Below are positions 44,544 through 63,038 of a stretch of 64,000 bases of DNA, one piece after another. Location of the stretch: NCBI GenBank assembly GCA_020723385.1, contig DYIZ01000013.1, positions 1,733 to 65,732 on the forward strand, read 5' to 3'. A model generated the notes under the pieces. That model was not told the origin of the DNA. It saw only the letters and a list, made by a program, of their open reading frames with translations, and ran no database searches. The translations under genes were made by a program, and so were the position numbers. The number at the start of each line of letters is the position of its first letter. The first letter of the stretch is position 1. The stretch comes from Candidatus Aquidulcis sp. Lineage in GTDB: Bacteria; Chloroflexota; Anaerolineae; Anaerolineales; UBA4823.

Positions 44544-44561
44544 TTTGGGGTGCAAAACGGT

Positions 44562-44628
44562 CTTCGACTGCGCTCAGACTGCCTGTATCTGCGCCCTGAG
44601 CACATAAGCGCCCTGAGCGCAGTCGAAG
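44562..44628. repeat. Second CTTCGACTGCGCTCAG / CTGAGCGCAGTCGAAG pair
   Basis: Same 16-mer as at 36661-36716, in the opposite arrangement. Confidence 0.8.
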
Positions 44629-44665
44629 GGTACTCTTGCACTAAATCTTATGGGAGTCAGCCATA

Positions 44666-46303: not shown

Positions 46304-46320
46304 CAGGAAAGGTGATGATT

Positions 46321-47670
46321 ATGTACGAATACGGCCCACAGCACCCATTATCTTACCGGCAAGAAGTCCTGACTCCCCTTTTCGAGCGCATCCGCGTCGG
46401 CGAATCCTGCGTGGTGGTTGGTCCGGCCAGCATGGGGAAGACCCGCCTGCTGGATTTCATGATGCGCCCGGATGTGCAGGATCACTATCTCGGGAAGCAG
46501 TCAGGTGAAACCATTATCCTGCGGGCCGACTGCAACCGGATGGCGCAGGCCAATGAGTGGGGGTTATTCGAGATGATGCTCACCGCTCTGGTCGAGGGAT
46601 CGGATCAACGACCGAGATCCCGCAATTACCAAAAGCAGCTCAATGATCTCCGTGAACCTGTCATTTTGCGGGAAAACGCGCTTTTAGCCAACCGGCATTT
46701 GGAATTGGCCGCTCGCAGCCTGATCAAAGAAGCCGGGATGAAGCTGTGTTACGTTATGGATGAGTTCGATGAGACTTACCGGCGGTTTCCCGCACTGGCG
46801 CTGGCAAAACTGCGCGCCTTGCGGGATCAATATAAGAACCGGCTGTGTTATGTTCTATTGATGCGCAATATTCCGGAACGCATCCGTGACCCGGAGGATA
46901 GCGAGAGTTTTTACGAGCTATTCTCACGGTGGGTCATTGGGCTTGGCCCGTATAACGATGACGACGCAGCGCGTATCGAAGCCCAGTTAGAAGACCGCCG
47001 CCAGCACAACTTTCCTATGCAGATCAAAACCAACCTGCTGAGGATGGCAGGGGGCCACGCCGGGATGATCGGCGCTTTGATGGACATCCTGACCAAACAC
47101 CCTGAATGGGGCCTCGACCAGGCTAACCTAACCCAATTGGCGGAACAGCCAGCGATATTGGAGGAGTGCCGAAAATTATGGGAGGGCCTACCCGAGGAGG
47201 AGCATTACGGGTTAGCCAACCTCCAGCGGGGGGCTTCGATCCCGGAGAATATCCGCACCCGCCTGGGGCTGAAGGGACTGGTCAAAACCGACGGAGCCGC
47301 TGCCCGCATCATTCCGCCGCTTTTTGGTGAATATATCCGAAAATTCGGGCCATCAGCCCCCGGGCAAGTCTGGCTCGACGAGAGCGCCCACACGATCCAG
47401 GTCGAAGGGCGCATCATCAAAAATTTGACTGCGCTGGAATTCAAACTGGCTGCATTTCTCTATCATCACATCGGTCAAATCTGCCGGTGCGATGAAATCC
47501 ACGAGCAGCTTTTCCCCAACGAGCCGGCATTCACCAACGAGAGCAATACCCGGATTGACACGCTCGTACGGCAACTGAGAGACTCTATCGAACTCGATCC
47601 ATCCCACCCGCGCTACTTGATCGCGGTGCGCGATGTGGGGTATAAGCTGGCTGCGACCGCGGAGGGATAA
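46321..47670 (+). CDS. STAND-type P-loop NTPase with a C-terminal OmpR-type winged helix
   Basis: Walker A GPASMGKT, Walker B YVMDEFD, AGGHAG; LTALEFKL...RQLRDSIE.DPSHPRYLIAVRDVGYK; start after AGGAAAGG. Confidence 0.85.
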   Translation: MYEYGPQHPLSYRQEVLTPLFERIRVGESCVVVGPASMGKTRLLDFMMRPDVQDHYLGKQSGETIILRADCNRMAQANEWGLFEMMLTALVEGSDQRPRSRNYQKQLNDLREPVILRENALLANRHLELAARSLIKEAGMKLCYVMDEFDETYRRFPALALAKLRALRDQYKNRLCYVLLMRNIPERIRDPEDSESFYELFSRWVIGLGPYNDDDAARIEAQLEDRRQHNFPMQIKTNLLRMAGGHAGMIGALMDILTKHPEWGLDQANLTQLAEQPAILEECRKLWEGLPEEEHYGLANLQRGASIPENIRTRLGLKGLVKTDGAAARIIPPLFGEYIRKFGPSAPGQVWLDESAHTIQVEGRIIKNLTALEFKLAAFLYHHIGQICRCDEIHEQLFPNEPAFTNESNTRIDTLVRQLRDSIELDPSHPRYLIAVRDVGYKLAATAEG

Positions 47671-47682
47671 TCCCGACCGGTC

Positions 47683-47727
47683 AACCGAGAATCGGAGAGG
47701 CGGTATCGCTCTCTCCGATTCTCGGTT
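47683..47727. terminator. Hairpin at the junction of the two convergent signalling operons
   Basis: AACCGAGAATCGGAGAG / CTCTCCGATTCTCGGTT followed by T residues. Confidence 0.7.
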
Positions 47728-47835
47728 TTGTTATTGCTTGGTGATGCTGGCGGTGGACGACAGTCCACCGTTTGCGGCGTGCGCATTTGAGACAGGGACT
47801 GTCGTCCCCTCTGAGCATAGGGGTGAGTGTGCGGT

Positions 47836-49339
47836 TCAGCTTTGCACGATCAGCACCGGCGAGACCCAGGTGAGGTCGTCTTTGTTGCGGCGGGCCAATT
47901 CCCGCCTCGAGCAGCGCCAGCTCGGGGCTGCCATGATTGGGCAAAGAACGGTAGAAAGCCAGAGTCATCACCTGGGCGTTATCAACATCCACCGACCACC
48001 GGTACCCCAGAACAGACGGCACGCCGGATTGAATGATACTATCGGCAATTCCCAAGTAATCGTTGTATAGCAAATCCTTCGAATCCCCGGTCGAGACTCC
48101 ATCGCAGCACGTCAGGTGAACCAGGCGGGTATCCGAATTTTCGAGCAGGAAACGCAAATCATTCCCGGTCAATGGCATTACATTGCCTGAACGCTTCTTG
48201 TGTTCCCAAAAGAACAGACTGCTGGTTTCCGAAGAAGATTCTCGGTAGATGCCGTGCCCAATGTAATGGACAATGTGAAATTTGTTGGCGTTCAACAATT
48301 CCTGTACTTCATCACACGATGCATCATCAGTCGGCAGGTATTTCAGATCGAGCCACTTCAATGGAGACAGCAATTTCGCCAGGGCAGCCCCCATCTGGTC
48401 AATTTCATCCAGCCTCGGCTCCGTGTTCGAGACGAGCAGTAAAACACGCAGCTTATTACCTGTGCGGACAAGTTGCCGGATCAAATCAGCAGAAATTGGA
48501 ACATGGTTGGTCATTACGCCTCGAACCTGGCGCGTCATTGGATGGAGCAATGCCAGATAGTCACTCGCATCGTCAGAGAATAAAAATTCGAGTGGTAATC
48601 CCACCAGATCGCGGCTGGTCTCGAATGCCAACTGAAGTTTCTGATTCTGGCTAACGCTACCCAAAGCTCGTTGATAACTGCTCAATACTGGAGGGTGCTG
48701 CTCGAACAAGAGCCGGTATAGATCTCGCCCCACAGTCTTGAGAATGAATCGGCCCTTGAGCATATCCAAAATGTGCTCGTTGCCCCAGGCTTTGAACAAA
48801 GTCGAATCGAGATTTAGCAAATTGGGAGAATTGGTCTTAAATCGGATTTTTCCACTCACTTGCAGGTGAATCCGATGGCCCGGCTCTAAAGAAACGCACA
48901 ATTCACAATCGTCGCGCTCATACCAAAACGCAGATAGTTGTTGAAATAACACCGCACGGCTGACATATTCCAACAACAGGTTGATTTCATTCTTTTGCAG
49001 AAAGCCAAAGGCTGGAGAATTTCCTTTTTTGTCCGGCTCGAGCGCGCCGCGCACCATCTCTACATCCGCATAGCCAGTCAGAATGATCACAGCCGTCGCT
49101 GGATATTTTTCGTGGATGTGGTGCATAAGATGAATGCCATCGCGATTATCCTCGTCGGTATCATCCAGCCGGACATCCAAAACTGCTACTTGAAAAGATT
49201 CGGAAGATAGAATCGAGTTTGCTTCTTCCAAACTGGCTGCGGGTATCACATCATATCCATCAGAAACCAATAAACTCACTAACGTTTGCCTGACATCTGG
49301 GAAATCCTCAACAACTAAAATACGGCTTCGTTTTGTCAT
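47836..49339 (-). CDS. Receiver plus CHAT (caspase-like) protease; apparent frameshift near 47902
   Basis: REC: VVEDF, LDVRL; CHAT: GLPLEFL, HYIGHG, HLTCCDG, GVPSVLGYRWSVD; the alternative frame ends ELARRNKDDLTWVSPVLIVQS* at 47836. Confidence 0.8.
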
Positions 49340-49379: not shown

Positions 49380-50957
49380 CTAATGTTTCAGCCTCTCCGC
49401 CACCACGGCCGCGGTAATCAGGGCGTGGTCGCGGTGGGCTGGCTCCATGTCCATCACGGTGACGACTTTGATGGCATTGAACAGGACTCCGATGAGATAA
49501 GCCCGCGCGGCATCGGGGTCGTTTTCGGGCAAGGCCAGCTCGCGGATTTTTTGGATGGCCCGGTGGGCTTTGTCAATCTCCGGGATGGCTGCCAGCTCCG
49601 GTGGAAGCTCGACCCTGCGCAGGTCAGGTGCATTGTAGGAAAGACAATCCCACTCGTAGAGCCGCTTCCAGTCGCTGCTCTGCACCATCATGAAACGGGT
49701 GAAGGTTTCAAAGGAAACGTAATCTTGCAGCAACGGCCCCCGGTCGGCGACGGCGAAATCAATCAGCCAGGTTTCGTTCCGCTCGTCTACCAGCACGTTG
49801 TAGCCGTAGAGGTCGCCGTGAATGATGGCGATTTGGGAGTCGGCCCGCAAATCGGCTGTGAGAGCGAATTTCATCGGATCGGGCAGAAGGAACTCTCCTC
49901 CCAGCCAGAGTCCCTGGCTGTCGCGGTGAAATGGGTGCCGCCCCGCCATCATGCGCTCCAACGAGCTTTGCATCACCTCGGATTTGAGGCGCACCAGCCG
50001 CATGTAGGTTTCACGCAGGTCGAGTTTGGAATGGGATGTAATAGCGTTACGCCGCCAGGGGAAGCAGGTTTCCTGGAATAGATTATCGAGGGCCGACAAA
50101 ACCTGGGCGAGGCCGGCCTCCCGATAGAAGATGGCGAAATCGCGGGTGGCGCCCAAACCCGCGAAGGTGTACAAAATCCCCGAGAGGCTGCGGGTGCGGG
50201 CGAAATGAAGCGTCAGCGGCAGGCGATGCCCGCCCACAATGCCCTGAACCAGCTCCCGGTATTTATGGCGTTCTTTCTCGACCAGGGCGTGCTCCCCGAT
50301 CTTGGCGACACGCGCCTCACCGCGTCCCCGCCCGCGGTACCAGGGGGTCACAGCAAAGACAGCCGCCCCGCTGTAGCCACGTTTCATTGGGCGAACCTCG
50401 ATCCGCTCGCATTCGTAAAATAGCTTTTGTAGAATTTCGCAGGTTTCTTCAGCCACCTGCCCGGCATCGGGTTTGGCAATGTCAATAAAGCGGATTTTAT
50501 TAGCCACATGCGGGATGAATTTTTCGGTATCTTCGATAATGAGTGCATCGTTGATCCGCAGAGCATTGTCGAATGCCCCTTTCACCTGCTCCGGCAACCG
50601 CATGATTTCTGATTTTTGGAGAAAACTGTAAGCCGGAGCAAAACCATTGGAATCCGGCTGGAGCGCTTCCTGCACCATCCCGACAGTGGCATACCCGGTG
50701 AGGATAATCACAGCGACGGTGGGGTCTATGCCATTGATATCGTGCATCAGGGTGATGCCATCCTGATTGTCCTCATCGGTGTCGTCCAGGCGCACATCCA
50801 GCACGGCCACGTGAAAACGCTCGGCCTCGAGCAGCTGCAAGGCTTCAAAACGGCTGGAAGCGGTGCGAACGAGATAGCCTCTGTCAGAAAGCAAACCCGA
50901 CAGCGTTGTACGCATGTCGGGCAGATCGTCAACGAGGAGAACGCGGCCTTTACACAT
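49380..50957 (-). CDS. Receiver domain fused to an APH/kinase-like (TCAD9-like) phosphotransferase, second copy
   Basis: REC: LVDD, LDVRL; kinase: GYSGAAV, RVAKIG, HGDLYGYN, WLIDFA, LQDYVSFE. Confidence 0.82.
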   Translation of the reverse strand: MCKGRVLLVDDLPDMRTTLSGLLSDRGYLVRTASSRFEALQLLEAERFHVAVLDVRLDDTDEDNQDGITLMHDINGIDPTVAVIILTGYATVGMVQEALQPDSNGFAPAYSFLQKSEIMRLPEQVKGAFDNALRINDALIIEDTEKFIPHVANKIRFIDIAKPDAGQVAEETCEILQKLFYECERIEVRPMKRGYSGAAVFAVTPWYRGRGRGEARVAKIGEHALVEKERHKYRELVQGIVGGHRLPLTLHFARTRSLSGILYTFAGLGATRDFAIFYREAGLAQVLSALDNLFQETCFPWRRNAITSHSKLDLRETYMRLVRLKSEVMQSSLERMMAGRHPFHRDSQGLWLGGEFLLPDPMKFALTADLRADSQIAIIHGDLYGYNVLVDERNETWLIDFAVADRGPLLQDYVSFETFTRFMMVQSSDWKRLYEWDCLSYNAPDLRRVELPPELAAIPEIDKAHRAIQKIRELALPENDPDAARAYLIGVLFNAIKVVTVMDMEPAHRDHALITAAVVAERLKH

Positions 50958-50977: not shown

Positions 50978-51376
50978 TTATGGTAACACACGTTGAATTG
51001 TGGTCAACAATTGTACGATATCGGACTTGGGCACAAAATCCGAAGCCAGCACAAGGCCAGATGCATCCGGGCCGCGGGTGTACTGCACATCTTCGGTTGT
51101 GCCATAGCCAGTGACGATGATGATTTTGATCGAGGGCCAACGGATGCGGATTTTCCGAGCCAGCAACAAGCCATCTTTGTTATCTTCGTCGGTATCATCC
51201 AGGCGCATGTCCACCAGCGCCAGATCGAAGCGACCTGTTTCAAGGATCTGAATCGCTTGATCTGAGGATTCCGCCACCTCGACTTCGAATCCTTTGCCCG
51301 CCAGCAGGCCGCGCAGGGTAGCGCGCCAATCTGGAAGATCGTCAACCACCAACACCTTGCGCGGTTCTTTTGTCAT
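50978..51376 (-). CDS. Single-domain response regulator
   Basis: VVDD, VDMRL, VTGYG and FVPK; GAGGAG RBS. Confidence 0.9.
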   Translation of the reverse strand: MTKEPRKVLVVDDLPDWRATLRGLLAGKGFEVEVAESSDQAIQILETGRFDLALVDMRLDDTDEDNKDGLLLARKIRIRWPSIKIIIVTGYGTTEDVQYTRGPDASGLVLASDFVPKSDIVQLLTTIQRVLP

Positions 51377-51402: not shown

Positions 51403-51756
51403 TCACGGCTTCGATGAGAGCGGCAGCAGCTCACGGACGCGATTGAGCAAATCCTCTGACCCAAAGGATTTGGGGAAATAACGCACTGCACCCAGGCGGT
51501 AGGCGTTGAGCGCTTCCTGCGTGTTGGGCCTGACGGTGGTCACGATCACGCGCTTATCGGCATATTTCTCGCCGATTTCCTTGATGATATCCAAATGGCC
51601 CGAGCTGGCAATCACCAGGTCGAATTGGTCGTCTTCGAGCTGTTTCAAAGCTTCTTCGATGGTGGAGGCGACAACGATCTCGAATCGGCTCAAATCGTTC
51701 TTGACAAAATCAATCCAGCGTGGCTCGTCATCAATGATCAGGATTCGTGTTTTCAT
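51403..51756 (-). CDS. Atypical (pseudo) receiver protein
   Basis: IIDDE and YFPK are present, but FDLVIASSG has no Asp at the phosphoacceptor position. Confidence 0.8.
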   Translation of the reverse strand: MKTRILIIDDEPRWIDFVKNDLSRFEIVVASTIEEALKQLEDDQFDLVIASSGHLDIIKEIGEKYADKRVIVTTVRPNTQEALNAYRLGAVRYFPKSFGSEDLLNRVRELLPLSSKP

Positions 51757-54700
51757 GAGATGCCTCCTCCCCGGATGGGGATGGTCACCAGCATGACCGT
51801 ACCCGTCATGCCGGTGGTCTCAATTGTAATATCACCGCCCAGGCTCTGCAAGATCAAGCGGCTCAACCACAATCCCAGGCCGGAACCCATCCCTTGCTCT
51901 TTTGAGGAGACCGGCTTTACAAACAACCGCTGCCGGATCGAAGGAGGAATGCCAGGACCGGTATCCTGAACGTGGATCCGAATGAGGTTATCAACCAATT
52001 CGCTGGTTACTGTCAATGTACCGCCGCCAGCTTTCATCGCGCGGTAGGCGTTATCCACCAGGTTATTGATAACTTCTGAAATTTGACCAATCGGCGCACG
52101 GATAACCGTAATTCTTTCATCGAGTTTCTTGACTGTCGTCACAAATGGATGTGTGGTGTCATCCTTCCAGGCTTTCTGAACCTGGCTGACAATTTCGTCT
52201 AGCACCGCATTGATATCTACATCTCCTATTTCGGCGTTTTGCAGCGGTTCTTGAATCCGTGTGATCAATTGGGATGTGTACCGGACATTGCGCTCGACGA
52301 TATCGAGGCACTCCTGAATGGTGGCGTCAGAAGTGTCCACGCGTTCACGCAGCCGGTAGAGGTTGGGAGGAATGATATTGAGGGTGTTATTGATGCGGTG
52401 CTGCAGGGCAGCGGTAGCTGTGCCGAGGACGCCCAACTGTTTATTGGCAATGATCTCTTGCTGAAGCTGCTTTGTCTCGTTATAGAGGCGAACATTCTCC
52501 AAAGCGATGACCGCAGCTTTGGCAATATCTTCCAAAATCTCGAGGTCTTGCTGGCGGAAGCGGTTTTCGATGGTGGGATGATCAATGCCAATGACACCCA
52601 CAACCTGACCACCCTTAAGCATTGGAACGGCCATCCAGGAGGCCTTGATATCCTCTCGCTCAGTGCTATGCCCAGGCTCAGCAAACCAATCTTCGATTTC
52701 TTTACGGGTAGAGAAAAAGATCGGTTTTTTGGTCTCGATGATATATTCTGTACGGCCCTTCCCCGAGACTCGTGAAGGCAAATATTTGGGTTGATCGTTA
52801 GCGTAAACGAGAGCAAAACGAACCGTATCGGAAAGCTCATCGTACAGCGCAATATACATATTGCTGGTGTCCATCAATTTGGTGGCCTGATCCCGTATCA
52901 GGCTCAACAGTTCTGCCTCCGATAACTGAATATTCGAATTGACCGCGCGATTGAAATCTATCAGGGCCTCTAAGCGTTGATTGACATGGGTCATGTCGCG
53001 GACCATAAAAGCATTGTCCAGGGCGACGGCCGCCTGGTTAGCCATGGCTTGCAAAATTTCCTGATCATCGCCGCTGAACACATAATCTTGAGTCGGGTGG
53101 TATGCGGCTACCACGCCCAAAACTTTCTCCCCCAACATCATCGGAACGCCTAACCAGGATGCTGAAATGGCGCCTGTATATTCTTTATGACCTTTCTTAT
53201 CGTACCACGCTCTCCCCTCCGCCTGCGTCGAATGTAAAATTGGCTCCTTTGTACGAATGATCTCTTCCGTTCTTCCTTGACCAGCTTTCCGGGGTTGATA
53301 GGCTTTTGTGCTGACAATATCTGCTTGTCTGCCGTTGAGGTAAACCAGACCAAAACGCACATAATCGGTTGCCTCGTCATACAAGGCGATATACATATTG
53401 CTCGTGTCCATCAGGTCACTGGCATGTTGATGAATCAAATCGAGCACCTGCTCTTCCGTCAAGCGCAAGCCTTGCGTCACCTCACTGCTGAATTTAACCA
53501 GCGCCTCTAGTTTTTGATTCCTGGCGTAAAACAGGCGTGAATTATCCAGCGCAATTGCAGCCTGGTTGGCGAGCGCTTGCAGGATGATTTTGTCATCCTC
53601 ACTGTAAACATAATCATTGGTTGGATGATAAGTCGCAACCACACCGACAACTTTATCTGCGACCAGCATCGGAACACCTAGCCACGATGCCAAAGGCTGG
53701 CCGATATATTCGCCGTGACCAGGTTGAGCATACCACGCCATACCTTCAGCTTGAGTAGCATGGAAAAGGGACCGTTTGGTCCGAATAATTTCCTCGGTCT
53801 TCCCGCTACCCGCCTTGCGGGGCTGCCAGCCTTTCTCTTGAGCTATTTCTATTTTCCTCCCGTCAACAAAGGCCAGCCCGAAACGAACGGTATCCGTTGT
53901 CTCGTCGTACAGGGCAATATACATATTTCTGGTATCCATCAACTGGCTGGCTTTATTGTGAATCAACTCGAGAATTTCATGCTCTCTGAGGCGAATGCCT
54001 TGGGTCAGCTCCAAACCAACTTCATTGACCGCCCGCGTAACTTCGTACAACCGGGCATTGCGCAGTGCAATGGCCGCCTGGTTAGCCAAAATCATCGCCA
54101 ATTCCTGGGCGTCATCATTGAAAGCTTCTTTCTGCGCGCTTTCAGCATTGAGCACCCCCACCAGCTCATTGCCGACCAGCAATGGCACATCCAGCTCAGC
54201 CAGGGTCGATTCGACATCCTTCCGGTAACGATCATCCACTGTCACATCATTGGCGCATATCAATTCACGCTTTGCGGCAGCCCCCCCCATCAATCCCTCT
54301 CCAACCTTGATGCTGGCGCCTTTCGCCTTGCCAATCGCATACTGGAATTCCAGCTCATTGGTAGTTTTATTCAGCAATGCAATCGAGCCAACCTCACACC
54401 CCAGCATTTCCAGCGATTGCGCCAGGATAGTCTGTAATAAAACATCCTTATCGAGAATACTGGCAATGTTTCGCGATATTTTTTGCAGCGTCTGCCGCTG
54501 CTCGAAGAGGCGCTTATTATGGATTGCAACAGCAGCCTGGCTGGCAAAAAGCTCGATCAACTCTCGTTGGGATGACAGGAAAGTCTGCGGCGTGCGGAAG
54601 TTGGCGAATAAGATGCCGACCAATTCGGTTCCAACGATCAGCGGGATAGCGGATGAGGATCTTACCTTCTCGCGAACAACGAACCGCTCTTCGGGACGAT

Positions 54701-56021
54701 CTACTCGATCCACTGTGAAATCTTTGGTGAGATCGCCTGGCCCCTGGGAATTGAGAATGTAAGCCGGTTTCCGGCTCTTCACAATTGTCCAAACGACATC
54801 GTCGGCATAAACTTTATCTTTCGCTACAGTTTGAACAAATTTTTCACCGGCTTCGATGGGCGGCAATACAAAATCATTTCGTTGTTGAATAAACTCATAA
54901 AAAACGACTAGGTCTGCACCCAGCACATTTTTGGCGGTTTCGACAATATCCTTGAGAATGTCCCGCACCGTGATGGGCGTAGCCGGCTTGGTGAGCAGCG
55001 TCGAGCCGACTTCGTGCAGCCGCTTGAGCGCCTCGGCCCGGCGGGTGATCTGCTGGTACAGGCGGGCGTTGTCAATCGCCACCGCGGCCTGGTTGGCGAA
55101 CACCCGGATGGTGTCTTTTTCCTCCTCGCTGAACTGGTGCGGGGTGCGGAAATTGACATACAGGATTCCCAAGACACGCTCGGTCACCTTGAGGGAAATC
55201 CCCATGAATGCTTTGATATCCTCTCGCTTGATAAATGGGCTTTCCAACATCGCAGGGTCTTCAGCCTGGATGTCACCACGCACCACTTCTAGCTCCCGTT
55301 TGACATAAACGGCCATCCCACCCTCACGGCGCGGTTTTTCGTTGAGATGCAGCGATGTATTCAACCCAAAAGCAGCCACGCTCTTTTGATCGTAAAATTC
55401 CTCGTTCTCGGGATCGTAAGGATACACCACCGCACAGTCAGCGCCGGTCACATCGCAAGCGCCCTTGACCACTTGTTCCAGCACCTGCATCGGGGAACCA
55501 GAAGCCAACTGCTCGAACACCTCCCCCGTCTCGATCAACCGCCGCAGCGTCTTGCGCCGCTTTTCCGCCTCGAGTGTCAAACCCACCTGGGCGGAATAAC
55601 TGCTCAACAATTGCCGCTCCAGCTCCGTAAACTCTTTGACCACAAACGAATAAATGCATACGACACCAATCACCGTATCGCCCACTTTGATCGGGAGAAT
55701 GAGCGCAGAACGCCAGCCCTGTTCCTTGGCAAAATCCTTGTATTTCCACAGCGGGTCGGTCAGAATATCATGAACAATTACCATTTTGCCCGTCTGAAAC
55801 GCCTGTCCGGTTACAGTTGGCGTGTCAAAACCCAGGAAGGCCGTTTCAATGTATGACTTTGGCAAACCGATCGCAGCCTTAATGCGAAGTGTGTGCGCGG
55901 TTTCATCCGGGACCCACACGCTGATGGGCAAATTGAGCACCCGATTGATCGATTCGACCATCGTTTGGAAAATATCTATCGGCTCGGTGGTTTTTCCGTT
56001 CTGCAATTGTTCGAGACCCAT
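51753..56021 (-). CDS. Soluble histidine kinase with about 7 GAF domains
   Basis: Repeated ANQAA.A.DN GAF ends; QHRINN, NLVDNAY, DTGPGI and GSGLGL; ATG after GGAGG, directly after the upstream stop codon. Confidence 0.9.
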   Translation of the reverse strand: MGLEQLQNGKTTEPIDIFQTMVESINRVLNLPISVWVPDETAHTLRIKAAIGLPKSYIETAFLGFDTPTVTGQAFQTGKMVIVHDILTDPLWKYKDFAKEQGWRSALILPIKVGDTVIGVVCIYSFVVKEFTELERQLLSSYSAQVGLTLEAEKRRKTLRRLIETGEVFEQLASGSPMQVLEQVVKGACDVTGADCAVVYPYDPENEEFYDQKSVAAFGLNTSLHLNEKPRREGGMAVYVKRELEVVRGDIQAEDPAMLESPFIKREDIKAFMGISLKVTERVLGILYVNFRTPHQFSEEEKDTIRVFANQAAVAIDNARLYQQITRRAEALKRLHEVGSTLLTKPATPITVRDILKDIVETAKNVLGADLVVFYEFIQQRNDFVLPPIEAGEKFVQTVAKDKVYADDVVWTIVKSRKPAYILNSQGPGDLTKDFTVDRVDRPEERFVVREKVRSSSAIPLIVGTELVGILFANFRTPQTFLSSQRELIELFASQAAVAIHNKRLFEQRQTLQKISRNIASILDKDVLLQTILAQSLEMLGCEVGSIALLNKTTNELEFQYAIGKAKGASIKVGEGLMGGAAAKRELICANDVTVDDRYRKDVESTLAELDVPLLVGNELVGVLNAESAQKEAFNDDAQELAMILANQAAIALRNARLYEVTRAVNEVGLELTQGIRLREHEILELIHNKASQLMDTRNMYIALYDETTDTVRFGLAFVDGRKIEIAQEKGWQPRKAGSGKTEEIIRTKRSLFHATQAEGMAWYAQPGHGEYIGQPLASWLGVPMLVADKVVGVVATYHPTNDYVYSEDDKIILQALANQAAIALDNSRLFYARNQKLEALVKFSSEVTQGLRLTEEQVLDLIHQHASDLMDTSNMYIALYDEATDYVRFGLVYLNGRQADIVSTKAYQPRKAGQGRTEEIIRTKEPILHSTQAEGRAWYDKKGHKEYTGAISASWLGVPMMLGEKVLGVVAAYHPTQDYVFSGDDQEILQAMANQAAVALDNAFMVRDMTHVNQRLEALIDFNRAVNSNIQLSEAELLSLIRDQATKLMDTSNMYIALYDELSDTVRFALVYANDQPKYLPSRVSGKGRTEYIIETKKPIFFSTRKEIEDWFAEPGHSTEREDIKASWMAVPMLKGGQVVGVIGIDHPTIENRFRQQDLEILEDIAKAAVIALENVRLYNETKQLQQEIIANKQLGVLGTATAALQHRINNTLNIIPPNLYRLRERVDTSDATIQECLDIVERNVRYTSQLITRIQEPLQNAEIGDVDINAVLDEIVSQVQKAWKDDTTHPFVTTVKKLDERITVIRAPIGQISEVINNLVDNAYRAMKAGGGTLTVTSELVDNLIRIHVQDTGPGIPPSIRQRLFVKPVSSKEQGMGSGLGLWLSRLILQSLGGDITIETTGMTGTVMLVTIPIRGGGIS

Positions 56022-56022
56022 T

Positions 56023-57378
56023 TCAATTCCTCCCGGCGCTGTGAACTGCCCGCCAGTGAAAATCATCCACCAATGATTGGTGGTAATCGTTCTCCCGAAA
56101 AGCCAGCCCTCGCCGGTCCAGCTCCACTCGGGTGATCAAATGGGGCATTCCCCATTCCTTTTCCAGATAAGCAATCTGACAACCGGTCAGCGTTTGCCCC
56201 TGGTTCTTATGCAATAATCGCTGGAAACACCGCTGGCCGCGCGCCAACGTTTTCGAAAATCGCTCGGTCTCGGCTGTGAAGTAAGCCAGCAAGCGCGCTT
56301 TCACCCAGGGGTCACAACAAACCGAGGAAACATTTTGCGAGACGCAATCCAACATGACCGGCAAAAAATTGGGAGATTGGATTCCAAGCAAAAGCTGCCG
56401 CGTGATCACCCCGCGGATCAGCATTTTGATGATGCGCTGCCGCCCATCCTTGCCCGGAGGGGGCGCGCCGTCAGCCACCAGGCAGTACAGGCCCTTGAGA
56501 TAGTCCGCTATGACCCGCTCGCTGGCTGCGGCCAGCGCCGCCGGAAGATCGTCTGCCCGGACGAAAGCGCGGATGCTCTCGATAATGGGCTGGTACAGAT
56601 CGGTATCGAAGACGGAGGGCGCGTTTTGCAGGATCATCGCCACCCGCTCGGAGCCGATCACCGTCTCGGTGAAGGGATCGTTCATCGGGAGGAAGCTCCG
56701 CCGGTCGGGGCCAAGCTCCCGGCAGATGAACAGCGAATTGGAGAACTCCACGAACCGCCCGCATTTGCATCCAGGGCGGCAATCCGCCCCACAGGCTCGC
56801 TCCCGCCCCCGGTCGTAGAAAAGCTCCGTGTTGGGGCCGCACTTCCGGGGAGGGGCGCTCCCCTCGATGCCGTTACCCTGGATCCAGTAATTGCTCTCGG
56901 CCCCCAGCCCAACGACCCGCTCTTCGGGTACGCCCACTTCCAGCCAAGCCCGCCGGGCCAGGTCATCCTCGGGCATAGGATTCCCCATCACATCGCCGCC
57001 CTTGAAATACGATACCCAGATGCGTTCCCGGTTTACCCCCAACACCATCGTCGCCAGCCGCCACATCCGGCGGATCGTCTCGGTTTTGCCGTTCGGCCCG
57101 AACTCGAACGCCCCCGGCATCTCGAACAGGCTGAGATGTACATCATCCGACCCAACTTTGTCGAGATCGAAATGGCGAAAACACTCTTGAACCAACACAT
57201 ATTGGTTACCATCCCGGCGAGGCGATTGGGACAAGGAGGTTTCCACCTGCACCAGACCGGCGCTCATCACGAACGACATTGGGATGGATGCATCCAGCAA
57301 CGGGGCGCGGGGCAACTGCTGGTACCCCAGCCCCTCGTAATATTTGACAAAACGCTGGCGGATCACATTCGAATCCAT
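56023..57378 (-). CDS. Truncated, divergent alanyl-tRNA synthetase paralogue (aminoacylation and helical domains only)
   Basis: IRQRFVKYY, QECFRHFDLDKVG, FEMPGAF, NYW, CGPNTELFYDRG, GCKCGRFVE, IGSERV, VIADY and ETERFSKTLARG; ends at about 451 aa with no editing or C-Ala domain. Confidence 0.85.
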   Translation of the reverse strand: MDSNVIRQRFVKYYEGLGYQQLPRAPLLDASIPMSFVMSAGLVQVETSLSQSPRRDGNQYVLVQECFRHFDLDKVGSDDVHLSLFEMPGAFEFGPNGKTETIRRMWRLATMVLGVNRERIWVSYFKGGDVMGNPMPEDDLARRAWLEVGVPEERVVGLGAESNYWIQGNGIEGSAPPRKCGPNTELFYDRGRERACGADCRPGCKCGRFVEFSNSLFICRELGPDRRSFLPMNDPFTETVIGSERVAMILQNAPSVFDTDLYQPIIESIRAFVRADDLPAALAAASERVIADYLKGLYCLVADGAPPPGKDGRQRIIKMLIRGVITRQLLLGIQSPNFLPVMLDCVSQNVSSVCCDPWVKARLLAYFTAETERFSKTLARGQRCFQRLLHKNQGQTLTGCQIAYLEKEWGMPHLITRVELDRRGLAFRENDYHQSLVDDFHWRAVHSAGRN

Positions 57379-57402
57379 GCGGCCTTTCACCCCAAAAACG
57401 AA

Positions 57403-57549
57403 GAGCCTGCCCGGATTGCAGGCTTTGGCCTGCCTGCTTCAGCGGACTGAAGTCCGCAATCCAGAGATTTACAATTACGAGCCTGCCCGGATTGCAGGCT
57501 TTAGCCTGCTTGCCTCAGCGGACTGAAGTCCGCAATCCAGAGGTTTACA
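57403..57549. repeat. Two tandem 71-bp REPIN-like units (period 76)
   Basis: GAGCCTGCCCGGATTGCAGGCTTT.GCCTG...GCGGACTGAAGTCCGCAATCCAGAG.TTTACA at 57403-57473 and 57479-57549. Confidence 0.85.
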
Positions 57550-57694
57550 GTCAAGTATTGAAAGCGTACCTGCTCACCTTTAGTGTACAGCAACCTTCGA
57601 CCTTTTGCAATAGATTTTCGGTACTCGAAAATGATAGGCGCATCCTTTCATCCGAAAATTTAAGCATGTTGTCGGTTTCACTTCACCCCCCGCG

Positions 57695-57703
57695 TGCTAT
57701 AAT
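57695..57703 (+). promoter_or_regulatory. Extended -10 promoter element for dnaE
   Basis: TGCTATAAT about 50 bp upstream of the ATG. Confidence 0.55.
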
Positions 57704-57755
57704 CCGACCATACTGGTTATATTCGCCCTATCCCCGACTGCGCCGCATCTTACCC

Positions 57756-60700
57756 ATGTCCTTTGTCCACCTCCACGTTCACTCCGAATATTCTCTGCTC
57801 GACGGCTTCAGCAACATCAAGAAGCTGGTAGCCCGCGCCAAAGCGCTGGGGATGCCCGCCTTGGGCCTCACCGATCACGGTACGATGTTTGGCGTGATTG
57901 ATTTCTACAACGCGGCCATGTCTGCCGGGATCAAGCCGATCATTGGCATCGAGGCCTACCTGGCTTCCCGTACCATGAAGGAGCGCAACCCCCAGGAGGA
58001 CAAGAAATCCACCCACATCCTGCTCCTGGCCGAAAACCAGACCGGATACCATAATCTGTTACAGCTTGCCAGCGCGGCGCAGCTCGAAGGATTCTATTAC
58101 TACCCACGTGTTGACCATGAACGGCTCGCCCAATTCTCTGAAGGGCTGATCTGCTCATCGGGCTGCATGTCTGCCGAGGTGCCGCGTCTCATTCAGCAGG
58201 GCAACATGGACGGGGCGCGCAAGACCCTCGATTGGTACTACGAAACCTTTGGGAAAGATAATTTCTTCCTCGAGTTGCAATCCCATGACATCCCCGAGCT
58301 GGAGCAGATCAACAAGAGTTTGCTCGACCTGGGGAGGCGCTACGACGCCCGCTTCATCGCCACCAACGACGTTCACTACATCAACCGGGAGGATGCCCGC
58401 CTGCAGGACATCCTGCTCGCCATTCAAACCGGCTGCGTGCTCTCCGATCCCAACCGGATGCGCATGACCGACAACAGCTACTACCTGCGCACGGCGGAGG
58501 AAATGACCAGCTTGTTTGCCGGAGTGCCCGACGCGCTCAATAACACGCTGCTCATCGCCGAACGCTGCAACGTTGACCTGGGATTCAAGGGTTACCACCT
58601 GCCGAATTTCGACGTGCCCGAGGGCTGCACCCCCGAGAGCTATCTCCGGGAGTTGTGCGAGACCGGGTTACAGCGGCGTTTTGGCGCACGGGCCGGGGAC
58701 GCGGTATACCGCCAGCGGCTCGAGTACGAATTGGGCATCATCCACACGATGGGTTTCGACACGTATTTCCTGATTGTGTGGGATTTGTGCCGCTACGCGC
58801 GCGAGCAGGGAATCTGGTACAACGCGCGTGGTTCAGCCGCCGGCTCGATCGTGGCCTACTGCCTCGATATTACCGTGGTGGACCCAATCGAACACGGTCT
58901 CATCTTCGAGCGGTTTCTCAACCCTGGGCGCATCTCCATGCCCGACATTGACCTGGACTTCCGTGACGACCGCCGCGCCGATATGCTCGAATACACCGCC
59001 CACAAATACGGCGATGACAAAGTGGCGCAGATCATCACCTTTGGCACGCTCGGCGCACGCGCCGCTATCCGCGATGTGGGCCGGGTGATGGACATCCCCC
59101 TGAGCGAGGTGGACAAAGCCGCCAAACTGATCCCCAACATCCCCGGCAAGCCGGTCAGCATCCAGGATGCGCTCGAAGAAGTCCCCGAATTCAAAAAACT
59201 CTACGATTCCGAAGAATTCCTGCACGATCTGATTGACACCGCCAGCCAGATGGAAGGCGTGGTACGCAATGCCGGCACGCACGCCGCCGGGGTGGTCATC
59301 ACTGACAAACCGGTAGCCGAATATCTCCCCTTGCACCGTCCCACCGGGCAATCGGCCGAAGAATCGCCCATCAAAGCTGTGACTCAATTCGAGATGGGTA
59401 TCCTCGACTCGCTGGGCTTGCTCAAAGTGGATTTCCTCGGGCTGGCGACGCTCACCATCATGGCAAGGGCCTGCGACCTGATCCGCCAGCGGCACGGCAT
59501 CACCTTCGATCTCACCAACATCCCGGTGGATGATCCTGCAACCTACGAGCTGATGGGACGCGGCGATACGGCTGGGGTATTCCAGGTCGAAGGCAACGGT
59601 ATGCGCCGCTGGCTGGTGCAGATGAAGCCCAAAGAGCTGGCCAACGTCATCGCCATGGTGGCCCTATTCCGCCCCGGCCCGATGGATTTCATCCCCGGCT
59701 ACATCCGCCGGATGCATGGCGAGGAAAAGGTAGATTACCGCCATCCGCTGCTGGAACCCATTTTCAAGGAGACTTACGGGTATCCGGTCTATCAGGAACA
59801 GTTGATGTTCGCGGCGATCAACCTGGCCGGGTATACCCCTTCGGAATCCGACGAGCTGCGCAAAGCCATCTCGAAAAAACAAAAAGACAAGCTGCTGAAG
59901 CACCGCGAAAAATTCATCAAAGGCGCCAGGGAAAAGGATATTGCCGAGGACACCGCCGCAGCCATTTTCGATGATTGGGAAGAATTTGCGCGCTACGGAT
60001 TCAATAAATGTTTGCCTGGCGACACCGAAGTGGTAGATTATGCCACCGGCCGGCTCGTCAGGATCGAGGATATTTATACGGGTAAAGCTCATCTCGGAAA
60101 GACCGTATCGTGTGATACCCAGGCGCTTCGCCTGCAAACCGGGCAGGTATCGAACGTTATGGAAAATGGCGTCAAACCGGTTTTTCGTCTGACAACGGCC
60201 CTTGGCCGTCGCATCGAGGCAACTGCAAATCATCCCTTTTACACATATAATGGCTGGGAAATTCTCGATCACTTGCAAGCGGGTGATATGATCGCCACGC
60301 CACGCTGCATCCCGCTCAATGGACAGGCTGAATGGCCTGACCATGAAGTGATTGCTCTCGGGCATTTGTTGGCCGAAGGAAACTTATGCCATCCAAATTC
60401 CGTGTATTTTTACAGCCAGGATGATGACCAAGTGGCCGATTTTATCCATGCGGCCGAGCAATTCGACAATGTTCACTGCACTTCAGCACTTTACAAAGGC
60501 ACCTGGTCTGTCTATGCCAGTCGAGCAGATCGAAAGATCATCCCAGGTATCGTTCTGTGGGCACAAAGGATGGGGATTTGGGGTAAAAATGCCCGCCAAA
60601 AAGAAATCCCGGCGGCCGGTTTCGAACTTAATAACCGCCAAATTGGCCTGCTCATCAGCCGTATGTGGGAAGGCGATGGGCACATTGATGTCCCTGGGCG

Positions 60701-63038
60701 CAGTTTGTTCTATGCGACTGCATCGGAACGTATGGCGCGGCAACTACAGCATTTGCTTCTGCGGCTGGGAATCGTCAGCCGGCTGCGACAAGTGACTTTT
60801 CCCTACAAAGATGGTCGCACTGGCTATCAGCTTTTCATAACCAACAATAAAAATATCGTCGCCTTTGCACAGCAGATTGGCTGCTATTTCATAAGCGATA
60901 AACGTAAACGTGCGCTTGATACGCTGACCCTGGCCGGGAATCTCGAAGTGGGTACCCGCGATATCGTACCGCTTGCTGCAAAAGCGTTGATCCGCACCGC
61001 TAAGAAAAACCGCGGCGTCACCTGGCCAGAGATGAATGCTGCCTGTGGCGTTGCCCAACGCGAATTCTACCCGGCGCACACAATCACCAAACGCGGCTAT
61101 ACACGCGAAACGGTTGGCCGCCTGGCAGCTTATTTCGATGATCCCGCCCTTCGCCGGTTGGCCGACAACGATATCTATTGGGACGAAATCGTTGCGATTG
61201 AATACGTGGGCGAAAAACAGACTTATGATCTGGAAGTGGCCGATCTGCACAATTTCGTCGCCAACGATATTCTGGTTCATAACAGTCACGCAGCCGACTA
61301 CGGCATCATCGCCGTTCAGACGGGCTACCTGAAATGCCATTACCCGGTCGAGTACATGACCGCCCTCATGTCAGTGACCAAAAACGAGACCGAAAAGGTG
61401 GCCTGGTACGCCGCTGACTGCCGACGCATGGGGATTGACGTGATGCCGCCCGATGTCAACCACAGCGGGTGGGATTTCACCATCGAGGATTGCCCGGACG
61501 ATAAAAAAGGCGGTTGCAAATCCGTGATCCGCTTTGGGCTTGGGGCAATCAAAAACGTCGGGCAGGGCGCGGTAGAGGTAGTCATTGCTACCCGCGAAAA
61601 GGGCGGCGCTTTCAAGGATGTCAACGATTTCGCCCGCCGGGTGGATTTACGCCAGGTGGGTAAACGCGCCCTCGAGAGCATGATTCGCGTGGGGGCGATG
61701 GATTCCTTCGGTTCCCGCCCATCCCTTTTGGCTGCGCTCGACACGATCATGTCGGTCAACGCCGCCAATTTCCGCGCCGCGGAGGCCGGGCAGCTTTCCC
61801 TGTTTGGCGCGCACACCGGCGTGACCGATGAAGTCCACCTGCCCAAAGTCGTCACCGAAGTCAGCCGGCGCGAAATTCTCAATTGGGAGCGTGAGCTGAT
61901 CGGCCTGTACGTTTCCGACCATCCGCTCAGCCCGGTGATGGATCTATTGAACCAGACGGTCTCGCACTTCGCCGGGCAGTTGGCCGACGCCAACCATGGC
62001 GAGCGGGTGCGCGTGGCGGGCCTGGTCACCCGGATGCGCAACCACCAGACCAAAACCGGCGCACAGATGGCTTTTGTCACCATCGAAGACATCCAGGGCA
62101 ATATCGAATTGGTGATCTTCCCGCGCACCTGGGAAAAAGTGCAGTCCATGATCGAATTCGACAAGATCATCCTGGTGGACGGTAAAGTGGATAACGCCGA
62201 GGGCACCGACCCGAAGGTGCTGGTAGATGCGATCACGACCGAATTTAAAGTCACAACGTCGGTCGAATCTGCCAAGGTTGAAAGTTCGAAGGTTGAAGGT
62301 CCGAAGGTTCAAAGTTCGAAGGCTGAAAGCTCCAACCTTCAACCTTCAACTTCCAAACCTTCAACTTATTCAAAACCTTCGACCCCCAAGGCCGCCCCCG
62401 AACCCCGCAAGGTCGCCGAGACCCCCAAACCCGATTACACCCCGAGCGACGGCCCGCCCCCGCCGCCCGACAACTTCCCCGAAGAGTGGACGATTGTCTC
62501 CGAAATGGCCCCCGGCGGATTCGTGACCGAGACGGCACGCACCGCCCCGCTGACGCCGCCCCCAGCGCCCACGCCAGTGATGGATGAACCGGACGAACCC
62601 GAGTCGCCGCGCATTTCACTGCCCGAAAAAGCCGCCCCTACCGGAGCTGCAAAGCCCGCGCAGGCCCCATTGGAGACGCGTCCCCCAATGCAAAAACCGG
62701 CATCCGAACCGCTGCCCCTTGCCGTGCCGCCGCCGGCCATCCCGTACATTGTCTCCCCGGTTCCAGCGACCTCGGGGGAAGACATCCACATGCTCACCCT
62801 CGTCATGCGCTCCTGCGGCGACAAGGTGCGCGACAACCTGCGCATCCGGCAGGCGTATGGCACGCTCATCTCCTACCCCGGCAACGACAAATTTGCCTTC
62901 CAGGTCTTCGAGCGCGGGCGCGGCTACCTGGTCGAGTTTCCCAATTTCACCACCGGCCTGTGCCCCGAGCTGGTCGCCCGGCTGCAAGAGCTGGTGGGGG
63001 CGGAGAATGTGCGGGTGGAGCCGATTACGATATTGTGA
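57756..63038 (+). CDS. dnaE: DNA polymerase III alpha subunit, intein-containing
   Basis: FVHLHVHSEYSLLDG, RGSAAGS, MPDIDLDF, HAAGVVI, KVDFLGL, YGFNK/SHA and an OB fold; start set at MSFVHLH. Confidence 0.97.
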   Translation: MSFVHLHVHSEYSLLDGFSNIKKLVARAKALGMPALGLTDHGTMFGVIDFYNAAMSAGIKPIIGIEAYLASRTMKERNPQEDKKSTHILLLAENQTGYHNLLQLASAAQLEGFYYYPRVDHERLAQFSEGLICSSGCMSAEVPRLIQQGNMDGARKTLDWYYETFGKDNFFLELQSHDIPELEQINKSLLDLGRRYDARFIATNDVHYINREDARLQDILLAIQTGCVLSDPNRMRMTDNSYYLRTAEEMTSLFAGVPDALNNTLLIAERCNVDLGFKGYHLPNFDVPEGCTPESYLRELCETGLQRRFGARAGDAVYRQRLEYELGIIHTMGFDTYFLIVWDLCRYAREQGIWYNARGSAAGSIVAYCLDITVVDPIEHGLIFERFLNPGRISMPDIDLDFRDDRRADMLEYTAHKYGDDKVAQIITFGTLGARAAIRDVGRVMDIPLSEVDKAAKLIPNIPGKPVSIQDALEEVPEFKKLYDSEEFLHDLIDTASQMEGVVRNAGTHAAGVVITDKPVAEYLPLHRPTGQSAEESPIKAVTQFEMGILDSLGLLKVDFLGLATLTIMARACDLIRQRHGITFDLTNIPVDDPATYELMGRGDTAGVFQVEGNGMRRWLVQMKPKELANVIAMVALFRPGPMDFIPGYIRRMHGEEKVDYRHPLLEPIFKETYGYPVYQEQLMFAAINLAGYTPSESDELRKAISKKQKDKLLKHREKFIKGAREKDIAEDTAAAIFDDWEEFARYGFNKCLPGDTEVVDYATGRLVRIEDIYTGKAHLGKTVSCDTQALRLQTGQVSNVMENGVKPVFRLTTALGRRIEATANHPFYTYNGWEILDHLQAGDMIATPRCIPLNGQAEWPDHEVIALGHLLAEGNLCHPNSVYFYSQDDDQVADFIHAAEQFDNVHCTSALYKGTWSVYASRADRKIIPGIVLWAQRMGIWGKNARQKEIPAAGFELNNRQIGLLISRMWEGDGHIDVPGRSLFYATASERMARQLQHLLLRLGIVSRLRQVTFPYKDGRTGYQLFITNNKNIVAFAQQIGCYFISDKRKRALDTLTLAGNLEVGTRDIVPLAAKALIRTAKKNRGVTWPEMNAACGVAQREFYPAHTITKRGYTRETVGRLAAYFDDPALRRLADNDIYWDEIVAIEYVGEKQTYDLEVADLHNFVANDILVHNSHAADYGIIAVQTGYLKCHYPVEYMTALMSVTKNETEKVAWYAADCRRMGIDVMPPDVNHSGWDFTIEDCPDDKKGGCKSVIRFGLGAIKNVGQGAVEVVIATREKGGAFKDVNDFARRVDLRQVGKRALESMIRVGAMDSFGSRPSLLAALDTIMSVNAANFRAAEAGQLSLFGAHTGVTDEVHLPKVVTEVSRREILNWERELIGLYVSDHPLSPVMDLLNQTVSHFAGQLADANHGERVRVAGLVTRMRNHQTKTGAQMAFVTIEDIQGNIELVIFPRTWEKVQSMIEFDKIILVDGKVDNAEGTDPKVLVDAITTEFKVTTSVESAKVESSKVEGPKVQSSKAESSNLQPSTSKPSTYSKPSTPKAAPEPRKVAETPKPDYTPSDGPPPPPDNFPEEWTIVSEMAPGGFVTETARTAPLTPPPAPTPVMDEPDEPESPRISLPEKAAPTGAAKPAQAPLETRPPMQKPASEPLPLAVPPPAIPYIVSPVPATSGEDIHMLTLVMRSCGDKVRDNLRIRQAYGTLISYPGNDKFAFQVFERGRGYLVEFPNFTTGLCPELVARLQELVGAENVRVEPITIL
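60009..61283 (+). mobile_element. 425-aa intein with a LAGLIDADG homing endonuclease
   Basis: YGFNK|CLPGDT...TANHPF...LGHLLAEG...MWEGDG...TYDLEV..HNFVANDILVHN|SHAA. Confidence 0.95.
62274..62383. repeat. AAGGTTG / CAACCTT heptamer-type inverted array in the dnaE linker
   Basis: Encodes KVESSKVEGPKVQSSKAESSNLQPSTSKPST; similar array at 20170-20231. Confidence 0.7.

Follow-up and report, generated by a model that had tools for sequence, protein, structure and literature searches.

A kinase-linked paralogue of alanyl-tRNA synthetase as a candidate cytoplasmic sensor subunit in Candidatus Aquidulcis and other bacteria

What would a protein with the fold of an alanyl-tRNA synthetase (AlaRS) do at the head of a histidine kinase operon? 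The question is raised by an AlaRS-like gene, called AlaL here, in a stretch of 64,000 nucleotides (nt) of Candidatus Aquidulcis sp. (Chloroflexota; Anaerolineae; assembly GCA_020723385.1, contig DYIZ01000013.1, positions 1,733 to 65,732). This whole stretch is referred to as the window. The answer proposed here, in which confidence is about even, is that AlaL may be a neofunctionalised paralogue of the AlaRS catalytic fragment that acts in the cytoplasm as the input (sensor) subunit of the GAF-array kinase encoded directly after it.

The AlaRS-like gene and its kinase partner

The gene, its junction with the kinase gene and the kinase are the following.

56023..57378, minus strand: AlaRS-like gene (AlaL), 451 amino acids plus TGA, with the aminoacylation and helical tRNA-recognition domains and without an editing or C-Ala domain.
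56019..56034, minus strand: AlaL/kinase junction, read directly from the sequence, with GGGAGG at 56034-56029, TGA at 56025-56023, the spacer A at 56022 and the kinase ATG at 56021-56019.
51753..56021, minus strand: cytoplasmic sensor histidine kinase, 1422 amino acids, with seven GAF stretches (Pfam GAF/GAF_2/GAF_3), the H-box His1208 and HATPase_c at residues 1314-1416.

Translation gives an intact AlaL open reading frame (ORF) on the minus strand, from the ATG at 57378 to the TGA (451 codons); the plus-strand frame across 56023-57378 contains many stops. The initial annotation had given the right coordinates and left out the strand. Its length of about 451 residues and the end of the protein after the helical domain are confirmed by translation and by the Pfam match, which covers positions 2-422 of a profile of 552. 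The stop lies one base before the kinase ATG, as first noted, with A 56022 as the sole intervening base, and the Shine-Dalgarno sequence GGGAGG of the kinase sits within the 3' end of the AlaL gene. The two proteins would be made from one transcript.

The GAF-array histidine kinase that had been described next to AlaL is present, with seven GAF domains and HATPase_c. GAF domains are binders of nucleotides or small molecules. The HATPase_c domain scores 72 bits in Pfam, and no segment resembling a transmembrane (TM) helix is found in the window kinase outside the GAF domains. The protein has the marks of a sensor histidine kinase, its H-box His (His1208), N-box Asn and G-box Gly being invariant in 27 partner kinases.

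The pairing is highly conserved. A scan of the genome collection returned 52 loci, of which 36 (L015-L050) belong to the AlaL family; the remainder, at 26-31% identity, are mostly canonical alaS. Five of the 36 family loci end within 237 nt of the gene; in the other 31 the downstream sequence is 976 nt or longer. In 29 of these 31 the gene directly after AlaL encodes a GAF histidine kinase, on the same strand and with its start at -95 to +205 nt from the AlaL stop. The exceptions are L028 and L047, the latter only a fragment of 164 amino acids. At L028:1464-7876 (Desulfobacterales bacterium HSG2) the first AlaL motif is divergent, and the kinase, which bears an extra cNMP-binding domain, is 2213 nt off with DUF7945 and Uma2 ORFs between.

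A metagenome sample, independent of the genome set, gave 80 loci with alignment A3 as the query; an earlier scan of metagenomes with the single protein P0123 as the query had given none. Sequence of 500 nt or more follows the gene in 57 of them, and 53 of these 57 have an adjacent kinase, at -310 to +242 nt. Of the other four, one has the kinase 932 nt away and in three it was not detected. The partner kinases are 552 to 2064 amino acids long and all end in the same way, with a GAF domain followed by a DHp domain with the invariant His and by HATPase_c. This terminal GAF is of the type that is present three times in the window kinase (residues ~660-1180).

The search for longer proteins revealed five natural fusions of AlaL, GAF and kinase domains (P0133-P0137), in which the AlaL domains retain the full residue signature described below. 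An N-terminal AlaL domain followed by GAF domains is found in P0136 (2006 amino acids), P0137 (1718 amino acids, on 6 contigs) and P0135 (1300 amino acids, partial), and HATPase_c is present in P0136 and P0137. P0133 and P0134 contain two AlaL domains, two GAF domains and HATPase_c. A tandem arrangement is also seen apart from the fusions: P0123-P0132 (~910 amino acids; loci L067-L069) carry two AlaL domains, both with Glu, Val and Lys at the E-V-K signature positions, and the Glu of the 'FEM' motif is replaced by Gln or Arg. At L068 and L069 this double-domain gene is followed by a GAF kinase of ~600 amino acids.

Since the gene order is kept in four phyla and the domains are also fused, AlaL and the kinase are expected to work together. 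Overall, the 29 of 31 genome loci, the 53 of 57 metagenome loci and the five fusions uphold the functional tie between paralogue and kinase that had been supposed at the outset, and constitute strong evidence that the two cooperate, most simply as input and transmitter. A complex prediction for AlaL (alignment A1) and the kinase core, residues 1005-1422 (A2), gave a score of 0.00, a value taken neither for nor against a contact.

Fold, active site and conservation of the family

AlaL matches Pfam tRNA-synt_2c (PF01411) over residues 6-437 with an expectation value (E) of 7.9e-62 and 210 bits, against a gathering score of 30.3. This is the only Pfam match in the protein, which consequently lacks the four-domain architecture of AlaRS. 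AlaL is not an AlaX protein either, as no match to the editing domain tRNA_SAD (PF07973) was found in it. With the alaS profile TIGR00344 it scores 201 bits, well below the cut-off of 457.05 for a canonical alanine--tRNA ligase, whereas the full alaS of relatives reach 825-927 bits. The identity to the AlaRS of one relative is 30%, and the NCBI label for the family is 'alanine--tRNA ligase-related protein'.

The AlphaFold2 (AF2) model, computed from an alignment of 24 sequences, has a predicted local distance difference test score (pLDDT) of 87.3 and a predicted template modelling score (pTM) of 0.88. The top Foldseek match is 3hxu, the catalytic fragment of E. coli AlaRS, with a template modelling score of 0.77 and E 7.7e-31. 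The model superposes on AlaRS catalytic fragments along their entire length, and AlaL therefore corresponds to a complete catalytic fragment formed by the aminoacylation and tRNA-recognition domains.

The residues of AlaL were mapped by a HMMER alignment to the E. coli fragment, and the signature was counted in 149 single-domain family members and 16 canonical AlaRS. The altered motifs listed in the initial annotation are all present: SFVMSAGLVQ at 35-44, HLSLFEMPGAF at 81-91, TETVIGSER at 237-245, ADYLKG and DGRQRIIKMLIRG. The motif-2 and motif-3 Arg residues of class II synthetases, also said to be retained, are R68 (E. coli R69) and R245 (R242). All 149 members have R68, W165 (W170) and N214 (N212), and 148 have R245; E211 (E209), G242 (G239) and E244 (E241) are also kept in AlaL. 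Near-invariant positions in the family are R68, F85, E211, N214, G242, E244 and R245.

On the other hand, the residues around alanine and those that read the tRNA acceptor stem are different. The alanine pocket of AlaRS involves M43, R69, W170, N212, D235 and G237 (excerpted text of PMC12467997), and N303 and D400 are the readers of G3:U70 (excerpted text of PMC6055181). In AlaL, M43 corresponds to L42, V214 to L216, D235 to E238, G237 to V240, N303 to K310 and D400 to K407. Within the 149 members E238, V240 and L216 are each found in 148, K310 in 144 (with Arg in 3 more) and K407 in 145, while all 16 canonical AlaRS have D, G, V and N at the D235, G237, V214 and N303 positions. The canonical alanine pocket, as judged from D235, G237 and V214, is thus missing in AlaL, and the two readers of G3:U70, Asn303 and Asp400, are both Lys. 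The family also has a new Cys-x3-Cys-x3-Cys-x-Cys cluster (C196, C200, C204 and C206), present in 149 of 149 members. Each residue named here as kept, changed or new occurs in 144-149 of the 149. From this pattern of kept and changed residues, the nucleotide site looks intact and the alanine/amino-group pocket is, as far as sequence can tell, remodelled in a fixed way, with the acceptor-stem readers replaced by lysines.

Three further candidates for family marks were rejected. The 4-residue gap after R68, the 'GPNTELFYD' string and the loss of CGPC are all seen in canonical AlaRS of other phyla. Relatives of this Anaerolineae-type family (L004-L012, L014) have a canonical AlaRS with Ala, within the string 'LYATYGLP', at the position of D400, which reads G3.

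A word-indexed protein search with AlaL gave 606 proteins. The best 120 of these 606 are 55-66% identical to AlaL and nearly all 413-485 amino acids long; the typical length of ~445 residues is conserved in more than 120 proteins. In 24 aligned members the mean column identity is 66%, with ~100 invariant columns. A library of representatives at 50% identity, considered for the top 145 matches other than AlaL itself, is split cleanly by the signature: ~55 short proteins have E-V-(K/R) at the D235, G237 and N303 positions, 61 long proteins have D-G-N and a few short proteins have E-A-R or E-G. The family extends over at least 116 loci and ~55 clusters at 50% identity. Its carriers belong to the Chloroflexota (Anaerolineae, Caldilineaceae, Promineifilaceae), the Cyanobacteriota (Phormidium, Spirulina, Leptolyngbyaceae) and the Bacteroidota (Saprospiraceae), together with one genome of the Desulfobacterales (Thermodesulfobacteriota).

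A phylogeny and selection analysis, both proposed in the initial annotation, were run. The tree was built from 30 family members and the N-terminal halves of 16 canonical AlaRS, ten of which come from the window organism's own family or order. The AlaL family forms one clade, on one side of a branch with a value of 100 in the Shimodaira-Hasegawa-like approximate likelihood ratio test (SH-aLRT), apart from canonical AlaRS; the branch joining the two groups measures 0.86 + 1.06 changes per site. The ratio of nonsynonymous to synonymous substitution rates (dN/dS, Nei-Gojobori) is 0.089 for L030/L031, the sole unsaturated pair (dS 0.16), which indicates purifying selection. It is 0.13 or lower in five further pairs, in which dS is saturated, and two pairs were not computable. 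The suggestion that the intact frame argues against simple decay is borne out by family conservation, by this ratio and by synteny across phyla.

Possible function and alternative explanations

The proposed function also involves the genes that follow the kinase, which complete the minus-strand run.

51403..51756, minus strand: stand-alone receiver, 117 amino acids (Pfam Response_reg), whose ATG overlaps the kinase stop (ATGA); its orthologues hold the same position in related loci.
50978..51376, minus strand: second stand-alone receiver, 132 amino acids from the ATG at 51376 (Pfam Response_reg, 64 bits; synteny).
49380..50957, minus strand: receiver-TCAD9/APH-like kinase, 525 amino acids (Pfam Response_reg, TCAD9, APH).
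47681..49339, minus strand: receiver-CHAT (caspase-fold) protease, 552 amino acids (Pfam Response_reg, CHAT), the last gene of the run.

The order kinase, receiver, receiver, TCAD9 and CHAT recurs at many Chloroflexota loci, and orthologues of the receiver-TCAD9 protein are downstream in L027, L034, L038, L040, L041, L048 and L049. Phormidium and Spirulina have a receiver and a Peptidase_C14 (orthocaspase) protein after the kinase, and Saprospiraceae a receiver and a CHAT-receiver protein. Caspase-fold proteases are thus found downstream in three phyla. A review of cyanobacterial orthocaspases gives one of them with an 'alas' domain (excerpted text of PMC7475262), too slight a lead to be used here. 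By eye, the first receiver has 'DLVIAS' in place of the usual 'DLVLLD' with the phospho-accepting Asp, and it may be a pseudo-receiver. None of the six operon proteins has a convincing TM segment, so that the signal is expected to be intracellular.

AlaL probably acts as a sensor and not in protein synthesis, because its kinase partner, or the fusion to it, is conserved in several phyla. In the mechanism proposed, AlaL would no longer charge tRNA-Ala. Its old active site would be occupied by an adenine nucleotide together with the acceptor end of a tRNA, whether charged or not, or by some other small ligand. The occupancy of this site would be relayed to the kinase through direct contact, which would alter the autophosphorylation of His1208. 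Subsequently, the phosphotransfer to the two receivers, the receiver-TCAD9 kinase and the receiver-CHAT protease would change, and the system may in this way couple translation or tRNA state to a protease/kinase response.

A more specific form of this proposal is doubtful at present. AlaL could be a bacterial counterpart of GCN2 that reads tRNA charging or damaged/foreign tRNA and drives a His-Asp phosphorelay. The relay would arm TCAD9 kinases and receiver-linked caspase-fold proteases of the CHAT or orthocaspase type, and would in this way switch the fate of the cell upon translation stress or infection. The lineages that carry AlaL are largely filamentous (Anaerolineae, Caldilineaceae, Phormidium, Spirulina, Leptolyngbyaceae, Saprospiraceae).

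Several observations weigh against the sensor proposal. The ligand, RNA and protein contacts of AlaL are inferred, and the retention of all nucleotide-site residues would fit an active enzyme equally well. The output genes differ by locus: a caspase-fold protease (CHAT/Peptidase_C14) was detected in only 11 of the 27 genome loci with a complete kinase; among the others, several are cut off too soon or encode receiver proteins whose output domain is unassigned. No tRNA gene was found within the window and none is linked to the operon, as unrelated tRNA genes occur in the flanks of 2 of 31 loci only. The assembly yields no canonical alaS, either by an alaS profile search or by tblastn with the AlaRS of a relative. 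The genes that flank alaS in relatives are at C210:6398-8005 and C45:948-2459, beside other neighbours and with no alaS alongside. Finally, the D400 position is already Ala in canonical AlaRS of the window organism's bacterial family, and the mini-AlaRS of Tupanvirus charges tRNA-Ala without the Asn/Asp pair (excerpted text of PMC10036535). For these last two reasons the loss of the pair does not prove that tRNA-Ala binding is lost.

The main rival to the sensor proposal, possible though on the unlikely side, is that AlaL makes or modifies a signal. It could activate a substrate other than alanine to an acyl- or aminoacyl-adenylate or, in the manner of AcmF, transfer the aminoacyl group from aa-tRNA to a nucleotide. 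The GAF domains would then read the product, or it would be attached to the kinase by lysine acylation of the EpmA or AARS1 kind. The fusion of AlaL to the N-terminus of the kinase is at odds with this, since it is the usual place of an input domain and not that of the maker of a diffusible ligand. Moreover, no gene for a product, carrier protein or hydrolase is conserved at the loci, and aminoacyl-adenylates are labile. On the other hand, the near-invariant R68, F85, E211, N214, G242, E244 and R245 suggest a working nucleotide site, and the remodelled pocket (D235E, G237V, V214L, M43L) is conserved and not degraded. There are also precedents. A truncated AlaRS-like protein with the same D-to-E change, AcmF, can be a transferase (excerpted text of PMC12945691), and in AARS1/2 the same pocket takes up lactate and is used to lactylate proteins (excerpted text of PMC12467997). 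GAF domains are listed among the domains that bind nucleotides or small molecules (PMC7159879).

It is unlikely that AlaL is only co-transcribed with the kinase and mechanistically separate from it, as a tRNA-directed effector or a repair/immunity factor and not a signal input. The operon contains receiver-effector genes (CHAT, TCAD9) that resemble effectors of conflict systems, TCAD9 by its Pfam name, and the outputs vary from locus to locus. However, AlaL is always the first gene, directly before the kinase and not before the effectors, and in five proteins it is fused to the kinase N-terminus. PADLOC has no match for AlaL or the kinase; for the two receiver-effector proteins it gives only a weak SduA match, over the receiver domains. 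None of the 130 pattern matches on viral contigs is a relative.

A very improbable alternative is that AlaL is the organism's working mini or split AlaRS, acting together with an AlaX-like gene. The alaS profile has two matches only in the assembly, AlaL (profile positions 2-415) and the AlaX-like gene at C117:34935-35996 (positions 481-847), and this fits a split enzyme, as do the missing alaS and the flanking genes on C210 and C45 without an adjacent alaS. A fragment of AlaRS of 461 residues is active. The Tupanvirus mini-AlaRS is active as well (excerpted text of PMC10036535). Against this, the assembly is a draft of 6.43 Mb in 239 contigs with a completeness of 95.55%, and full-length alaS scores above the cut-off in 10 of 10 other carrier genomes tested, which argues that AlaL is a paralogue and not a split enzyme. 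Full alaS is also present in 26 of the 31 genomes of the relatives search, a set of 31 that includes the assembly of the window (G000). The kinase-linked paralogue is absent from all 30 relatives searched. Several relatives with full alaS have a C117-type gene as well, so this gene is taken as an ordinary AlaX-like paralogue. In addition, no family substitution is missing from AlaL, which has both D235E and G237V where AlaRS binds alanine and is only 30% identical to the AlaRS of a relative.

The flanking gene on C45 is 948 nt from the contig end and an unrelated ORF occupies that stretch. The absence of alaS is consequently not due to a simple gap at the syntenic site, as the flanking genes are found with other neighbours. 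The expectation that a full alaS exists elsewhere in the genome thus holds for the 10 other carriers and finds no counterpart in this incomplete assembly. By the initial annotation's own account, the paralogue would be called into question if it were the only AlaRS of the genome. Formally this is the case here; it is attributed to the assembly, because AlaL has every family substitution and its orthologues always coexist with alaS. The split-enzyme explanation is accordingly rejected on alaS coexistence and on the active-site signature. Decay of a functionless duplicate has practically no likelihood, in spite of the low alaS score, the 164-residue fragment at L047 and the divergent L028 copy with 2.2 kb between it and its kinase, as the intact frame, the constant length in more than 120 proteins, the dN/dS of 0.13 or lower, the ~100 invariant columns among 24 sequences and the synteny kept across phyla refute it.

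Other elements of the window are less clearly connected with AlaL.

57403..57549, strand not assigned: a 71-nt repeat in two tandem copies that are 94% alike, between dnaE and AlaL, in the leader/promoter region of AlaL (repeat search).

No further full copies of the repeat are present in the genome. The copies can form hairpins (folding z -2.2 to -4.3), and the proximal one ends in a hairpin plus T-run 14 nt short of the AlaL ORF, a terminator-like site at 57424-57404. No counterpart was found upstream of AlaL homologues, and Rfam gave no family at gathering score in the window, with only sub-threshold matches in 57300-57800. It is uncertain whether the repeats are part of the AlaL system. 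The neighbouring dnaE (DNA polymerase III alpha; 57492-63038, plus strand) is split by an intein with a LAGLIDADG endonuclease domain, Intein_splicing being at residues 856-1264 of the product. Its listed TTG start is inside a 71-nt repeat and is probably too far upstream.

An operon at 40233-47670 (plus strand) converges on the AlaL operon. It encodes a receiver-GAFs-HATPase_c kinase (1436 amino acids), the second receiver-TCAD9/APH-like protein of the window (44666-46303) and a regulator with AAA_16 and Trans_reg_C (46144-47670). Homologues of the AAA_16 regulator are near AlaL in L027, L034, L036, L040 and L041. The gene at 38004-40223 (plus strand), 16 kb from AlaL, encodes another histidine kinase, which starts with an S1 RNA-binding domain and continues with a receiver, GAF and HATPase_c. 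This would be a second kinase input of RNA-binding type, and no gene of this kind was seen in the flanks of homologous loci.

Comparison with known systems

Signalling paralogues of synthetases are few and include the HisRS-like domain of GCN2, HisZ, EpmA and AcmF. AcmF is the closest experimentally studied precedent found. It is an AlaRS-like aminoacyl-tRNA-dependent transferase of ascamycin biosynthesis in Streptomyces sp. 80H647. Ala-tRNA and an adenosine analogue are accommodated in its old active site for the transfer of the alanyl group; the Glu of its D232E change is essential (excerpted text of PMC12945691, on which the comparison with AcmF rests). By this description, AcmF has only the aminoacylation and tRNA-recognition domains, carries Glu in place of the Asp that holds the amino group (D232E, against E238 in AlaL), is without the Asn and Asp pair that reads G3:U70 and coexists with a canonical AlaRS. 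AlaL shares the truncation, the D-to-E change and the absence of the pair. In contrast, AcmF is reported to have lost most residues for ATP binding and alanine activation (N219Q), and AlaL does not show this loss, its N214, R68, R245, E211 and G242 being near-invariant. The setting also differs, as AcmF belongs to an antibiotic gene cluster and the AlaL family stands before, or is fused to, a GAF histidine kinase. Other short AlaRS-like clusters (376-405 amino acids; P0209, P0216, P0232, P0264, P0269, P0276 and P0288) have Glu at D235 and Ala or Gly at G237, and clusters of Actinomycetota labelled 'alanine--tRNA ligase-related' are 387-464 amino acids long. Both may be AcmF-like families.

AARS1 and AARS2 are lactate sensors and lactyltransferases (excerpted text of PMC12467997). 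They use an AlaRS active site, with the pocket M43, R69, W170, N212, D235 and G237, for a non-translational ligand and for signalling, as is proposed for AlaL; they are full-length canonical enzymes that moonlight, whereas AlaL is a dedicated paralogue with an altered pocket. The catalytic fragment of canonical AlaRS and the Tupanvirus mini-AlaRS share with AlaL the two domains, the fold and the length class, and the Tupanvirus enzyme also lacks the Asn/Asp pair (excerpted text of PMC10036535). Unlike AlaL, with its D235E, G237V and V214L changes and a coexisting alaS, these enzymes charge tRNA-Ala and keep the alanine pocket.

In the literature searched, no description was found of an AlaRS-derived module as the partner of a bacterial histidine kinase or as its N-terminal domain. 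The main text of PMC7159879, supplements aside, has no mention of the AlaL-kinase link, and 10.64898/2026.10.19.760177 mentions only a class I-like domain. The family has already been named by NCBI; its linkage to a kinase is apparently new, no paper on it having been found. The AlaL family is a concrete case in which the idea of a new class of cytoplasmic input domain for kinases, derived from a translation enzyme, can be tested; caspase-like proteases are among the outputs of these systems. Should tRNA or aminoacyl-tRNA prove to be the ligand, the family would reveal how the state of translation is fed into bacterial two-component signalling, and possibly into programmed cell death.

The HisRS-like domain of GCN2 is a synthetase-derived, non-charging domain joined to a protein kinase and is thought to report tRNA charging. 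As in AlaL, a domain of synthetase type is attached to a kinase or, for AlaL, encoded beside it. The two differ in the synthetase (HisRS and AlaRS), in the kinase (the eIF2-alpha Ser/Thr kinase and a His kinase) and in the domain of life. The likeness implies no homology of the systems, and tRNA binding by AlaL is hypothetical. Stand-alone sensors directly upstream of their own histidine kinase are known in bacteria, for instance in the H-NOX/kinase pairs. There too, a small soluble ligand-binding protein is co-transcribed with a cytoplasmic histidine kinase and elsewhere fused to it, the ligand of AlaL being putative. What distinguishes AlaL from the H-NOX pairs is the sensor fold, which in AlaL is the catalytic fragment of a class II synthetase.

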